Sequence record: NZ_CP086424.1
Reading direction: 5' to 3' (one strand)
DNA length: 64,000 bases
Source: a plasmid
Position numbers: made by a program. Of this stretch, positions 27,001 through 39,000 are shown piece after piece (the first letter of the stretch is position 1; each line of letters starts with the position of its first letter).

Positions 27001-30000
27001 CCTTACTGGGACATGATCCAGTATTCAGGTAAGCAGTGGGGCGAGCCCAACAAATGGGATATGAGCCGCATGAATTTGCCTGAGTTCGTTGAAGCCCTTG
27101 AGCTGGCCGTTATGAATATTCATGACGCCTGTGAGCGAGGAGGGCATTACGGAATCCTCATGGGAAACCTGAGGCGCGATGGGGATTATTTCAACCTGTC
27201 CAGCCTTGTGGAACGTATCGCACCTGGGAAGCTGGTGGATGAGATCATCAAAACACAGCACAACTGTGTGAGTGACCGAACTCAGTATTCCGGGAAGCTG
27301 GTGCGTATCGCCCATGAAAAGCTGTTGGTGTTTCGTCGTAACGACGTTGCCTCATCGCTCTGTCTTCTTGCTGCCGTACACCGTCGAGCAACCAATATGG
27401 TTTCGACTACGTGGAAAGCTGCAATACGCCGAACCCTACAGGGGAAAACGTTGAAGCTGGAGCAGATTTACAAAGAGATTGAACCCTACGCAAAGCATCG
27501 AGAGAACAACCACTGGCAAGCAAAGGTCAGGCAAGTTCTTCAAGATGCCAGGTTCTTTATTCGCATCGAGGTAGGTGTCTATGCACTTGCTGAGTAGCCC
27601 AACCGGGGCGTGACATCCCGGAGGGGATTGGTCGCGCTCATCAACAACAAAGGAGCGTGACCATGAACGTACAACTTCAAGCCAGCAACAATGTGCTGTT
27701 GGCGCAAATCGAAAGCAAAGGCCTCACTGTTGAAACGCATTGTCGCAGTGGCTTTTGTGGCATGTGCCGGGTTCGTCTACTCGAAGGTCAAGTGGCTTAT
27801 GACGAGACGCCCATCGCATTTGTCAAAGAAGGGGAAGTGTTGGTTTGCTGCGCTAAAGCAAAAACCGATGTGACCTTGGAAATTTAACCCATCCGGAGGA
27901 GCCTTTCCTGCGGGTGGGGCTCCTCTATCCATTACGAGGAGAAACACTATGTCTATCAATACCAAAGTTGAACAAATCGCATACGGTCATGCTACCGCTC
28001 TAGTGCTCAGTGAACTGGGCCAACAAGAGAATTGGTGCAAGGCTTATGAGTATTTGTCTGAGTGTGTAGAACGGGGAGACGAACCTGAGGATCTGGTCGT
28101 TTGGCAACCGTTTGAGCACTGGGAATGGAAAGACATTCTGGAGCAGATCGAGAGCGAAGCCGAGTCTCTGCTTTCGACTATTAAGTCGGTTTTAGGCTTG
28201 GCCCACAAAGGCATCATTCAGTCAGCAATTGACTGCTCTCTGGATTCGGACATGACCCAGCTTGACCTGATTGGAATGGTCGAGCTCGGAAGTGAAATCG
28301 AAGATGGGGAGTGTGCTGGAGGTGGCTATGCAGCTTAACCGATACACGGCCAGGGAGTCTGACAAAAGTCGGATACTTCGGACCATAGGCTGGTGCAAGC
28401 GCAACCACCTTACACTTGCCGGTCTTCCATACGAGGACAATCTTGCAGGAAGTGATGGGATCAGCATAGAGATCATCACTCCTCCTGGTATGTCGCGGGA
28501 AATGTTGGAGCAAGCCGTCAGAGAGGGGTATTCAGAGCGAGATGTCGTAAGGCATCGCATTCTGGAGTGCCCTGTCGGTTGGTTCATGGAAGCTGATGGC
28601 AAGGCATTTGATCATGAAGTGTTCCACGATTACGTGGTGGCTCATGGTTATGGCGAACCTTCCAGCGAAGCCTATGAGCTGGCGGAGCGGTGGTTCTGGC
28701 AGGGCAACGATTATGCGTTGATAGCTGCGGAAATAGTTGCTCGTGATCTTTGTGTTCGTGATGACGAAGATGAGGACTGATCCTATGGATGCTGTAGCGC
28801 ATATAGCAGCAGATAACCTTGTACCGGCATGTGGAGGTGCAGAGAAGCCGTTTACCGTTAGTGGTAGACAGTGGCTTTACTGCTATCACCCAGCCAGTGG
28901 GAGGCACTGCTACTTAGACCTCGATAATGACCGTCCAGTCTGGCATCGAGGATTTCATCCTGCTTTTCATCCTGAGCTTGAGTTCGCTGATGAAGCTGAG
29001 TTGCTTCGACCAGTTGAGCGAAAGCCTGACCATGAAGAGCTGGAGGATTTTTACTTTTAACCCACGGGGCCGCTCTTCCTGATGGGAGACGGTCCTCCAT
29101 TCTCAAAGGAGAAGACCATGAAAGATCACAGTCAAACGATTGTGTTCCCTGGGAACAATGTTGAATCACTTGCTGAGGCTAACGCCATGTTGAGCGCTGT
29201 GTCGGAAGATGCACGTAAAGCCAGCAATACGGAAGACAAACGTGACCTTGAATCGCTTCAAGGCTGGCTGGAAGAGAACATCAATTCTCAACTGGCAGGC
29301 GTGAAGTAACTATGACTGTAACCCCACTGGGGGCTTCATGCCCCTGTGGGGGCATGGTGCCCGTAAAAGGAGTCACCATGAATGCAGTGAAGATGATCCA
29401 GAAGGAAAACCAGCTTGAGCTGCCGCTTTTCTTCCTGGATGAAGAGCCGAAGACCGCAGAAGTCATTCCATTTGAGCCAAAGCCTGAATGGACTGATGAT
29501 GAGGTAAGGCAGTTACGTGATGGGCTTTTATGGCATAGCCTTAGAGTCCTTGCTGATGGTCGAGCTGGAAGTGAAATCAAGCAGGAAACGATGGCTTGGG
29601 TGATGTCCGATGAGGTACATCCATTCTCATTTGTGGTCTGCTGCGATGAAGCAGGTTACGATCCATCTGGAGTAAGGGAAGGCGTGAAGTCTATCCTAAA
29701 CCGCTTAGCGCGGGTTAAAGCGGGGGGTTAACCCCCTGCTTTCCCAGTGGCATCGACTTTCACATGTGAAAGTTTGTGCCCCTCGGAAAGCAAGATTTTG
29801 CTCTCTGTCGAGAGTGAATAGTGAGGTAGCTGGCCTCCCCAAACAAACAGCATTCTACATAACCCTTGGGGGATCACTGCCCCTCGGGCTGGTGGTTCCC
29901 TGACAAACATGGAGCCACAACTATGACTACTCTTGCCAGCTTTGCGAATCCGATTTCTGTTATTCAACGCTCACCAACCAGTGGGGTGTTTGGCACAAAT

Positions 30001-36000: not shown

Positions 36001-39000
36001 ATGGAAGGAATCCAACAGCGCAAGGATGTCAAAGTGCTTAGCGATGCTAAGTACAAAGATCTGGTGAAGCGAAAAATCAAGGGAAGACTGGCAACGGTAC
36101 GCTGGTGGGTCAACTTGCACTTAACGTTCAAGTACCATCTGCACCACCGTACTCCGACGGGGTTGTTCATCGAGAAGCAACTTGACCAGGAAGCAATGGA
36201 AGAACAGAAACGGCATCAGGAGCGATGGTTTAACTACGTGACTGACGCGATGCTTTGTTACTCCAGCGCATTCTGTATGAGCGTCATGGAAGGGCGAGAG
36301 GGGAGCGGAAACGCCAACATTCGTCGTTACATGGCCGCGACCAGAAGGAAGGCTTATACGGCCCTCTGCGAGCTCTTGGACAATACTGACGCCCAGTGGA
36401 TGAATGATGTGGTCCAGAGTGCCGTAGGGCAGTATGAGGCGATACAGGCAGCCCTAACCGAAGGTTCCGCGCTTGCTATCTATCTCGACTGGATCAACCT
36501 ACTGTCAAAACGCCATCCAGCCTCTTTGGAGCGACATGTCAGAACGATGATCAAGGCGGTTCAACGCTTACATCGCCGCGACGACACAGAGTTGCAAAGA
36601 GGACAGCAAGGCTTGTCCTTGGCCGCATAAAAAGCCCTCCTTCGGGAGGGCTTTTTCTTTTGCACCCCAAAAGGGCAATTACAGCGTTTTACCCTTTTAG
36701 GTGGCTGTCATACTCTTTGTTCATTGTCAGCGCTTGCTGGCTATAACGGTAGCTGGCCCAAAACAGCAATAACCTAACCCCTCGGGAGGAAACCCCTCCT
36801 GGGTTCTCTCCCACAAACAAAGGAGAGAAGCATGAGCCTAGACAAGTTAAGTCGGCTGGTGGACCAACAACGAAAGATCCAGGATGAAATCGACAATGAA
36901 ATCATTCTGGCCGTCAAAGAGGTGTTGGCTACAAACTCAGTCGGTTTAGCCCGTGAGCTTGTTGGGGGTGTCCCGCAAGATCATCCATTCCATCCGTTTT
37001 TACTCGCTATAGCTAAGCAGCTTGACCCGAGATAACTAAGTAACCCAACCGGGTACACCAAGGCCCGGTCGGCTTTGGTGTACCTCCAACCAATTTTGGA
37101 GGCACTATGTCTAATTCAAATTTCGGCTTTCTAGCTCTGGCCTTGCGCCAACGCCTGATCAAACGCTGGTCACTGATGCACTCTGTTCAACCGGAGTCTG
37201 TGTTGGAACACAGCGCTGTTGTTACCCTGCTTTCCTACCTGGCTGGCAATATTGCCATTCAGCAAGGGAAGTCGGTGGATCTGGCAGTCATGCTTGCTCA
37301 TGCTTCGTTGCATGATGCAGCCGAGGTTCTCTGTTCGGATGTTGTAACACCGGTCAAGAAAGCAAACGCTGTTTTGCAGCGTGAGTTTGAACGACTGGAA
37401 AAGGCCGCAGAGGACAAACTCATCCAGACTCTTCCCGAAGAACTCCAGGATGCAGTCGCCATAGCCTTCGCTCCCGGTGGCTATGAACAATCACTGGTTA
37501 AGGCCTGTGATACCTACTCCGCTTACATCAAGTGCAAACTTGAGGTGGCCGCAGGTAATGGCCTTGAGTTCCAGGATGCTCTCAGCAAAATGGAACGTGT
37601 TGTTGCTCAGGTGAAATCGGACTTCCCGGAAATCGACGCTCTGGACAAATGGTTTGGTAACGGACTCGGCCATTCAGTAGATAAACTGCTGGCAGGGGGT
37701 AACGATGACTAATCCAATCCCTGGCGACATCAAGATTAAGGACTTTGGCCGCGACCGGAAATTCCGTTCGGTTGATGAGCTTCAAAGCACTTTGTCAGAA
37801 CAGTACAAAGGTCAGCATGTCAGCATCGTTTACCCTGCAAAGCCCAGCGGTTTACTCCGCACGGTTTTTGTCAGTGTCGATGATGCTGGTGGCGTGAATC
37901 GAACCTATGGGGACCAGTCTCCTGTCGATTTTTCTGCCATCAAAGATGACCTGTATGTACCAAGTGACCTGTAGGAGAGCACTAGCTATGGTGGTGATCA
38001 TCGTAAACACAGGACACTATGAGTTTATCGGCCTTGGTGAGACCCACGGACAAGCCACAGAAGGGCTTTTGAAACGCTGGGACGAACACTGCGAACGTAA
38101 TCCGGATGCTGAGTCTGGTTACATGCAGGAGCTGATAGAAGAAGGAAGCGCACAAGTTGTCGAGATGGAGCCCGGCTCCGCCGTAATTTACGGACTTGAC
38201 GGCTAAGCCTTCTCAACTAACCCACTCGGGCGCATCATCCCGAGAGGGTGTGGTGCGTCCTAACCAAAAGGAATGCACTATGTCTAACTTTGAACAAGCT
38301 CTGGAGCGTACTGACGGTAAAACACTGATTCTCAGCAATGGGAGTAAGTGGGCAGGCCAAGACCCGGACAGTATTCAGACTTTACTGGATGTCCTGGGTG
38401 ACAACGTTCTTGACCCGATGTTTGAGCAGTATCACTGTTATCGCCCATACCCGTTTGAACCAATGGTGAGGACGGGGCGAAATGGCGAAATGTTCCAGCC
38501 TTGGCTTGGGGCAGCCTGCTTCTTTGGGAACTTCCTGACTGTCTCTCATGTTTTCAACATCATCACGAAAGATGACGGTGTTGTTGAGGCCTTAACAGAG
38601 GCGATCCGGAAGAATATGGCGACTGAACAGTACCAGCAGAATGCCTATGAGCGTTATGCCGGTTGGTTCTACGCTGAAACCAGCGAAGGGTTAAGGCTAG
38701 TCTCTCCAAGTGAGGCTGCCGACATCCGAGCTGGCGCAGTTTCAAAGCTGCGTTACCCAAGAAACTTCGAGGTTATGAAAACTGCGGTTCTCAAAGGTCC
38801 TCGATTTGATACTGAATTAAGCCGCAAGGCTTCTTAACCCAAACATTAACCCCACGGGGGACATCGGTCCCTGAGGGGATGGTGTCTCCCTCTGAAATTA
38901 AGGAGATACCAATGATTAAACAGCATTTTCAAAACGAACTGGTTAAGTGTGGATACCCGGATGATCTGACGATTGAGTACAGTCTCGGATACTGCCAGGG

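Follow-up and report, generated by a model that had tools for sequence, protein, structure and literature searches.

Conjugation-regulated copies of a YfaE-family ferredoxin and a YfbR-family 5'-deoxynucleotidase on IncC plasmids and their possible role in deoxynucleotide supply

Two housekeeping proteins of Escherichia coli provide the closest described counterparts of the plasmid genes considered here. YfaE is a 2Fe-2S ferredoxin which maintains the diferric-tyrosyl radical cofactor of NrdB in the class Ia ribonucleotide reductase (RNR); its gene overlaps the stop codon of nrdB, the protein is sub-stoichiometric in E. coli, and raising YfaE increases both the tyrosyl-radical content and the activity of NrdB. 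Ferredoxins of the same family are encoded directly after nrdB in the jumbo phages OBP and Survivor. YfbR, in turn, is an HD-domain 5'-deoxynucleotidase (PDB 2paq, 2par and 2pau). Here, we analysed homologues of both proteins which are encoded on a stretch of 64,000 nucleotides from a plasmid (sequence record NZ_CP086424.1; this whole stretch is referred to as the window, and positions are those of the window unless stated otherwise). Both open reading frames (ORFs) reside on the + strand where an earlier note on this DNA had placed them.

The window represents the backbone of an IncC (incompatibility group C; IncA/C2) plasmid, and the 11.5-kb stretch around both genes is 100% identical in more than 600 conjugative plasmids of PLSDB. 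The IncC plasmids matching this stretch all possess a MOBH relaxase and a mating-pair formation system of type F (MPF_F), in line with the earlier assumption that the host element is conjugative. Adding about 50,000 converts window positions to those of the near-identical plasmid pVCR94 (pVCR94deltaX), in which the yfaE-like gene corresponds to vcrx101 and the yfbR-like gene to vcrx115. The two are located 9.2 kb apart with at least 14 genes in between, all of them on the + strand. Their annotation is already public, as RefSeq records, e.g., that of the complete IncC plasmid peH4H, name the ORFs yfaE ('class I ribonucleotide reductase maintenance protein YfaE') and yfbR ('5'-deoxynucleotidase'). 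A homologue of NrdA or NrdB was not identified in the window or in complete peH4H by tblastn, which returned only noise (E>0.2) while the positive control worked. The annotation lists of peH4H agree, and the absence of nrdAB, which had been noted before, is thereby extended to the complete plasmid.

The yfaE-like gene is predicted to encode a YfaE-family 2Fe-2S ferredoxin with intact ligands. Its product (74 amino acids from the ATG at 27663, or 76 from a GTG at 27657) matches the Pfam domain Fer2 (1.5e-10) and the NCBIfam equivalog NF007985, 'class I RNR maintenance protein YfaE' (93.3 bits, cutoff 75), while the next best NCBIfam family scored 34.6 bits. The protein is 43% identical to E. 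coli YfaE, the sequence of which was taken from the nrdA-nrdB-yfaE locus. In an alignment of nine sequences, comprising the window protein, E. coli YfaE, two phage ferredoxins and five plasmid homologues, the cluster cysteines CX4CX2C...C (C27, C32, C35 and C62/C63, numbered from the ATG) are invariant in all nine, and the same holds true for the YfaE signature, E..(Q/H)CR.G.CG.C(R/K)..(L/K)..G.(V/I)...P.A(F/Y)....E.L.CC, which the plasmid protein shares. Structural modeling by AlphaFold2 (AF2; predicted local distance difference test score, pLDDT, 78.8; two of five models of low confidence) suggested similarity to plant-type 2Fe-2S ferredoxins with template modeling (TM) scores of 0.63-0.70. 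The plasmid gene differs from E. coli yfaE in that it resides away from nrdAB on a plasmid without an RNR and is driven by a conjugation promoter dependent on the activator AcaCD, and its product is shorter by about 14 N-terminal residues. These residues, which form the first beta-strand, are missing from the IncC, pAQU-type and Pseudoalteromonas-element ferredoxins and present in those of E. coli, the phages, IncHI1B and Providencia. The ferredoxins of OBP and Survivor, which are 39-40% identical to the plasmid protein, are likewise YfaE-family proteins carried by a mobile element, but there the phage nrdB adjoins, whereas the orphan plasmid ferredoxin would have to act on host NrdB. Since yfaE directly follows nrdB in E. 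coli, OBP and Survivor, the function can safely be linked to the family, with the plasmid copies being true orphans. As a separate observation, NrdB of phage OBP (L008 3832-4965; L numbers are our labels for the contigs compared) is 78.7% identical to E. coli NrdB, which is unusually close for a gene of a Pseudomonas phage.

Similarly, the yfbR-like gene is predicted, on the basis of family models and residue alignment, to encode a YfbR-family HD 5'-deoxynucleotidase in which the known functional residues are complete. The protein matches the Pfam family YfbR-like, PF12917 (8e-38, 130.4 bits, cutoff 25.9), NCBIfam NF003009, '5'-deoxynucleotidase' (128.5 bits, cutoff 122), and, over its full length, the YfbR structure 2paq (1.6e-26). 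Eight metal, catalytic and substrate residues of E. coli YfbR are kept. The HD metal ligands H35, H69, D70 and D135 (H33, H68, D69 and D137 in YfbR) are invariant in plasmid and chromosomal members, as are R20, W21, E73 and D78, the equivalents of R18, W19, E72 and D77 in YfbR, which we take to be its catalytic and substrate residues. A loss of the HD metal ligands or of the ferredoxin cysteines upon closer alignment, which would have spoken against the families first proposed for the two genes, is therefore not the case, and both assignments are upheld by Pfam, NCBIfam and the alignments. Weaker matches occurred to PDB 6zpa (1.6e-3), PDB 5tk6 (1.4e-12) and PHROG 7076, 'dATP triphosphohydrolase' (5e-17). 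The phage S-2L dATPase DatZ and the oxetanocin phosphohydrolase OxsA share the HD fold family and are other members of the YfbR-like HD clade; however, they are far more distant than YfbR, and the plasmid protein retains the YfbR-specific substrate residues. The protein shows only the four-ligand YfbR pattern, which makes it an unlikely candidate for a mixed-valent di-iron oxygenase that receives electrons from the ferredoxin. Apart from being plasmid-borne, AcaCD-controlled and overlapped by a downstream ORF of 89 amino acids, the gene differs from its enterobacterial counterparts in sequence, as the protein is just 35-36% identical to enterobacterial YfbR but 58% identical to a chromosomal YfbR of Ferrimonas, its best chromosomal relative. 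The Ferrimonas gene directly follows an alaA-like aminotransferase gene, which equals the enterobacterial yfbQ-yfbR order (alaA = yfbQ) that is also found in Klebsiella, while the plasmid yfbR itself is outside that synteny. Based on the identity of 58% and the alaA-yfbR synteny in Ferrimonas, the plasmid yfbR looks like a captured housekeeping gene that originated from a marine gammaproteobacterial chromosome.

Both genes belong to the regulon of AcaCD, the master activator of conjugation, and reside in different transcription units, as follows from published ChIP-exo (chromatin immunoprecipitation with exonuclease digestion) and RNA sequencing (RNA-seq) data on pVCR94 together with the activator boxes in the window (Table 1). 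The box sequence TGCACCCNAAAAGGGCARTT has exactly two matches in the 64-kb window, one upstream of either operon, where 0.03 would be expected by chance; both are on the same strand as their operons, and their positions equal the published motifs (Table S3, PMC4207636). In pVCR94, AcaCD ChIP-exo peaks are located at 75305 and 86685, and a transcription start site at 86713-86715 matches the second box (PMC4207636). The expression values are 374 in the wild type, 1 upon deletion of acaCD and 3151 upon AcaDC induction for vcrx101, and 1178, 50 and 6412, respectively, for vcrx115 (Dataset S1, PMC4207636). The AcaCD dependence of both genes has thus resided since 2014 in a supplementary table of that study, which does not single them out. 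The first operon encodes two unknown proteins of 179 and 166 amino acids, an orphan DNA methyltransferase (26674-27597), the YfaE-like ferredoxin and two further unknowns; the second encodes an ORF of 67 amino acids, the YfbR-like protein, the ORF of 89 amino acids and unknowns of 72, 185 and 283 amino acids. A terminator-like hairpin separates the second operon from the preceding DndC-like gene, and the published operon prediction breaks at the same place; the hairpin is missing from the list obtained by the consensus terminator scan. Sigma-70 consensus-like promoters are depleted between 24.5 and 43 kb, with one found versus 12.6 +/- 2.9 expected from shuffled sequences, which fits transcription solely from activator-dependent (AcaCD) promoters. 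AcaCD-like boxes are also conserved at equivalent positions of other elements. The Pseudoalteromonas element L015 has one upstream of its ferredoxin operon (at 8211) and one upstream of its vcrx116 operon, and in a pAQU-type Vibrio plasmid a box precedes yfbR by about 275 nucleotides (L003 6726). A looser core of the box is found upstream of traN in the window. Another box-like core, CCCCAAAAAGGGCA, is located at 19177-19190 (+) within the hde operon upstream of bet, outside the 17 published ChIP-exo peaks.

Table 1. Position of the two genes, their control elements and the DndC-like gene in the window.
Feature	Position	Strand	Sequence	Basis
yfaE-like gene (vcrx101), predicted short YfaE-family 2Fe-2S ferredoxin	27663..27887	+		Fer2, NF007985, Cys ligands, AF2 fold
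yfbR-like gene (vcrx115), HD-domain 5'-deoxynucleotidase, 201 amino acids (predicted)	37107..37712	+		PF12917, NF003009, 2paq, residue alignment
AcaCD activator box, upstream of yfaE operon	25260..25279	+	TGCACCCGAAAAGGGCAGTT	pVCR94 ChIP-exo motif 75267-75295
AcaCD-dependent operon vcrx098-vcrx103	25509..28780	+		ORFs; operon prediction and RNA-seq, Dataset S1, PMC4207636
AcaCD activator box, upstream of yfbR operon	36661..36680	+	TGCACCCCAAAAGGGCAATT	pVCR94 motif 86650-86678
AcaCD-dependent operon vcrx114-vcrx119	36832..39763	+		ORFs; Dataset S1, PMC4207636
Terminator-like GC hairpin and T-run, directly 3' of the DndC-like gene	36631..36662	+	AAAGCCCTCCTTCGGGAGGGCTTTTTCTTTT	read from sequence
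Orphan DndC-like PP-loop protein, 817 amino acids, SGKDS motif	34177..36630	+		PADLOC DndC, 1.4e-41

A comparison of plasmids and related elements demonstrated that the yfaE-like and yfbR-like genes do not form a module, as they occupy separate operons and are distributed independently across plasmid families. The YfaE-like genes are part of a conserved array in which the hde operon is followed by genes for a DUF3150 protein, a CobT/VWA protein, a vcrx098 homologue, the Fer2 protein, more genes and a primase. The pAQU-type Vibrio plasmid, the Pseudoalteromonas element L015 and the metagenome contig L017 share this array, and in the latter two the ferredoxin occurs without yfbR, dcm or a DndC-like gene. 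IncHI1B plasmids of Klebsiella and a MOBH plasmid of Providencia encode more distant YfaE-like copies (45-49% identity), the one of Providencia about 3 kb downstream of mobI. Among Klebsiella records, a YfaE-like gene is present in 741, a YfbR-like gene in 275 and IncC DNA in 283, and about 460 extra Klebsiella plasmids of the IncHI1B type carry the YfaE-like without the YfbR-like gene. The YfbR-like copies (50-80% identity) are all embedded in runs of small genes which resemble plasmid DNA and of which several differ as to whether the neighbors known from IncC are present, and homologues of vcrx116-119 are likewise found in other elements with or without yfbR. Both genes are under purifying selection. 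The ratio of nonsynonymous to synonymous substitutions (dN/dS) was at or below 0.15 wherever it could be estimated, i.e., in all four yfaE pairs and in one of five yfbR pairs; in the remaining four yfbR pairs, synonymous sites were saturated at dN values of 0.15-0.41.

The ORF of 89 amino acids directly downstream of yfbR, vcrx116 (37705-37974, +), overlaps the yfbR stop codon by 8 nucleotides. In contigs L018 and L019, the small downstream ORF which overlaps yfbR is a vcrx116 homologue; in L022 and L023, an ORF of 86 amino acids overlaps in the same way and has no match to vcrx116. Homologues of vcrx116 are also present in elements without yfbR (L015 and L017). The yfbR orthologue of the pAQU-type Vibrio parahaemolyticus plasmid NZ_CP080480 (L003 7001-7840), which encodes 279 amino acids, has a C-terminal extension of about 80 residues for which homology was not detected. 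A Rosetta-stone link between yfbR and vcrx116 was rejected, as this extension is unrelated to vcrx116 and vcrx116 homologues also occur without yfbR.

The search for a metallo-protein partner of the ferredoxin on the plasmid itself was negative. Ten neighboring ORFs lack significant Pfam matches, and their PADLOC and PHROG matches are absent or uninformative. The family alignment of vcrx098, the ferredoxin's commonest neighbor, does not have a conserved cluster of Cys, His or Glu residues, and no plasmid gene co-varies with the ferredoxin across the elements compared. As there is neither a co-varying plasmid gene nor a metal-binding signature in vcrx098, the partner is most probably a conserved host protein, with NrdB being the obvious candidate.

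Both genes represent intact copies of host housekeeping genes which are independent of each other, selectively maintained, fixed in the IncC backbone and placed under conjugation control, each by its own AcaCD-dependent promoter. It might be hypothesized that they adjust the deoxynucleotide supply at conjugation, an explanation to which we would give an even chance. The biochemical identities of the two proteins are much more certain than their physiological roles. When transfer functions are turned on, the genes would be expressed in the donor and, probably for a short time, also in cells which have just received the plasmid. The YfaE-like ferredoxin would then reduce the di-iron centre of the host class Ia NrdB and so regenerate the tyrosyl radical, by which a plasmid without nrdAB might increase RNR capacity; since YfaE is sub-stoichiometric, a gene of merely 225 bp could be sufficient for such an effect on the host enzyme. 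The YfbR-like enzyme would hydrolyse deoxynucleoside 5'-monophosphates (5'-dNMPs) to deoxynucleosides and might thereby trim or rebalance the deoxynucleotide pool, or clear dNMPs released by nucleases, e.g., the co-regulated lambda-Exo-like Exo. Both genes would then serve the deoxynucleotide economy in conjugative DNA synthesis without being coupled to each other. The earlier note had suggested that they tune the supply of host deoxynucleoside triphosphates (dNTPs) for the incoming element. As regards the timing with transfer, this view is strengthened by the AcaCD-dependent expression and the boxes in the window, while the notion of a functional pair does not hold given the different operons and the independent distribution. 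The further suggestion that the genes counteract dGTPase or dCTP-deaminase defences gained no supporting evidence; a 5'-dNMP phosphatase removes deoxynucleotides and would not restore dNTPs.

Several points weigh against the proposed adjustment of deoxynucleotide supply. The role of either plasmid gene in nucleotide pools is inferred, and since the IncC ferredoxin does not have the first beta-strand of canonical YfaE, it should not be taken for granted that the protein interacts with NrdB. The margins by which the NCBIfam scores (NF007985 and NF003009) exceed their cutoffs are narrow. As every known host possesses YfaE and YfbR of its own, the benefit of extra copies is not obvious, and the effects which an RNR booster and a dNMP phosphatase have on the pool are opposed to each other. 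Plasmid-encoded yfbR has been described as the 'metabolic' gene that most often co-occurs with resistance genes on E. coli plasmids (PMC9750983); over-expression of a cloned plasmid yfbR in E. coli left growth rate and antibiotic susceptibility unchanged in the same study of 2022. Our literature searches found no functional study of the IncC deoxynucleotidase or ferredoxin genes beyond that one, and none of plasmid yfaE. Finally, the main text of a transposon-insertion sequencing (TnSeq) study on pVCR94 (PMC7498323) names just the hde genes vcrx089-093 as differentially required with versus without Cas, and vcrx101 and vcrx115 are not named there.

A more far-reaching version of the proposed role, which we consider unlikely, regards orphan YfaE ferredoxins as a widespread conjugation-timed device of MOBH plasmids (IncC, pAQU-like, IncHI1B and others) which takes over the maintenance of the host RNR cofactor and so exerts post-translational control of host dNTP synthesis without an RNR of its own. 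The captured YfbR would in addition be a functional analogue of the phage T5 protein Dmp and remove dNMPs that feed nucleotide-based immune signalling.

It is distinctly unlikely, in our estimation, that the genes have a role in anti-defence, such that the YfbR-like enzyme depletes the 5'-dNMP precursors or signals of nucleotide-based immunity while the ferredoxin sustains dNTP synthesis against dNTP-depleting defences. A precedent is provided by T5 Dmp, a pre-early 5'-dNMPase produced from the first-injected DNA, which blocks Kongming immunity by removing dAMP (bioRxiv 10.1101/2024.12.20.629578) and resembles the plasmid enzyme by analogy in that it would have the same class of activity, is borne by a mobile element and is expressed around DNA entry. 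Similarly, the neighboring IncC genes vcrx089-093 and dcm are reported to have proven anti-restriction and anti-CRISPR roles (PMC7498323 and PMC11602122), and vcrx101 and vcrx115 are co-induced with these hde genes by AcaCD. However, a homology between Dmp and the YfbR-like protein had to be rejected (BLASTP E=9.5, no Pfam match), and Dmp can serve as an analogue only. T5, moreover, degrades host DNA and has a dNMP kinase, and the plasmid does neither as far as known; the trigger of Kongming is such a phage dNMP kinase, and none is listed among the peH4H annotations by PGAP, for which no dedicated search was made. Neither protein matches a PADLOC defence or anti-defence model at E<=1e-3, and the TnSeq main text mentioned above assigns the differential requirement to vcrx089-093 alone. 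In addition, a dNMPase cannot replenish the dNTPs removed by a dGTPase or a dCTP deaminase. Both genes are also far from the origin of transfer (oriT), outside the first-transferred DNA in which leading-region anti-defence genes are found (cf. PMC11541004): with oriT/mobI at about position 0 of the pVCR94 and peH4H maps, the yfaE-like gene resides at 77.6 kb and the yfbR-like gene at 87.1 kb of the 120.5-kb map, and the distance to oriT/mobI is 33-43 kb one way round the plasmid and 77-87 kb the other way (pVCR94 coordinates).

A further explanation relates the two genes to DNA modification. The ferredoxin might feed electrons to the orphan DndC-like PP-loop protein, and the YfbR-like enzyme might remove modified dNMPs, e.g., 5-methyl-dCMP from Dcm-methylated DNA or thio-nucleotides, before these are re-incorporated. 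This idea is suggested by the position of both genes, which flank a block consisting of the methyltransferase gene, dcm (30725-32350) and the DndC-like gene. The pAQU-type Vibrio plasmid keeps the modification block together with a TusA-like sulfur carrier, and in contigs L018 and L019 yfbR is located two genes after dcm. We nevertheless consider such a role quite improbable, as L015 and L017 encode the ferredoxin but neither a DndC-like protein nor Dcm, many Klebsiella plasmids carry the ferredoxin gene without a DndC-like gene (741 Klebsiella records with the ferredoxin versus 329 with the DndC-like gene), and yfbR occurs without dcm or a DndC-like gene in L012, L020 and L022. The yfaE-like, yfbR-like and DndC-like genes are, moreover, in three different transcription units, and the substrate residues of YfbR are unchanged from those of the housekeeping enzyme. 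A coupling between the ferredoxin and the DndC-like protein was accordingly rejected, as their distributions do not match. That the genes are neutral chance captures from chromosomes, kept merely because the IncC backbone is clonal, is very improbable, even though more than 600 records share this backbone in nearly identical form, hosts already possess both functions and no phenotype was found for plasmid-encoded yfbR (PMC9750983), since orthologues with invariant functional residues and low dN/dS where estimable are kept in plasmid families whose proteins are just 50-79% identical, the operons are preceded by dedicated and conserved activator boxes, and expression is strong and regulated.

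Some observations concern the neighboring modification genes themselves. The DndC-like protein scored 119.9 bits against NCBIfam DndC, which is below the cutoff of 290, and has a C-terminal extension of about 350 amino acids; dndA, dndB, dndD and dndE were not found near its gene. By tblastn, relatives are present on 2765 PLSDB plasmids of up to 0.5 Mb, including those of E. coli, Salmonella, Enterobacter, Proteus, Pseudomonas and Bacillus, and orphan DndC-like genes on plasmids are not discussed in the reappraisal of Dnd systems by the Aravind laboratory. A second, smaller gene of the PAPS (3'-phosphoadenosine 5'-phosphosulfate) reductase family is located near repA in peH4H (3728-4843). In V. 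parahaemolyticus NZ_CP080480, the gene for the TusA-like sulfur carrier (L002 10220-10450) lies between yfaE and the DndC-like gene. The methyltransferase directly upstream of yfaE in the window (vcrx100, + strand) matches the Pfam domain N6_N4_Mtase and the helix-turn-helix (HTH) domain DpnI_C; it is called the cytosine methylase 'dcm3' (PF06044) in PMC7498323 and a DNA adenine modification methylase in some GenBank records, and its base specificity looks unsettled. Finally, positions 44000-54000 of the window have a GC content of 59-66% versus about 51% in the backbone and, by analogy with peH4H, in which IS5075, a Tn3-family transposon and a class 1 integron follow the toprim gene, are taken to represent a resistance or transposon island that was inserted there.

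IncC plasmids rank among the major carriers of multidrug resistance, and about one third of their backbone consists of AcaCD-induced genes of unknown role. To the public annotation of two such genes, our analysis adds their regulatory placement, their mutual independence and, for yfbR, the chromosomal source from which it was likely derived. If the proposed role in deoxynucleotide supply holds true, the tuning of the host RNR cofactor or of the dNMP pool by a plasmid would represent a new establishment function and might be a possible target against the spread of these plasmids.

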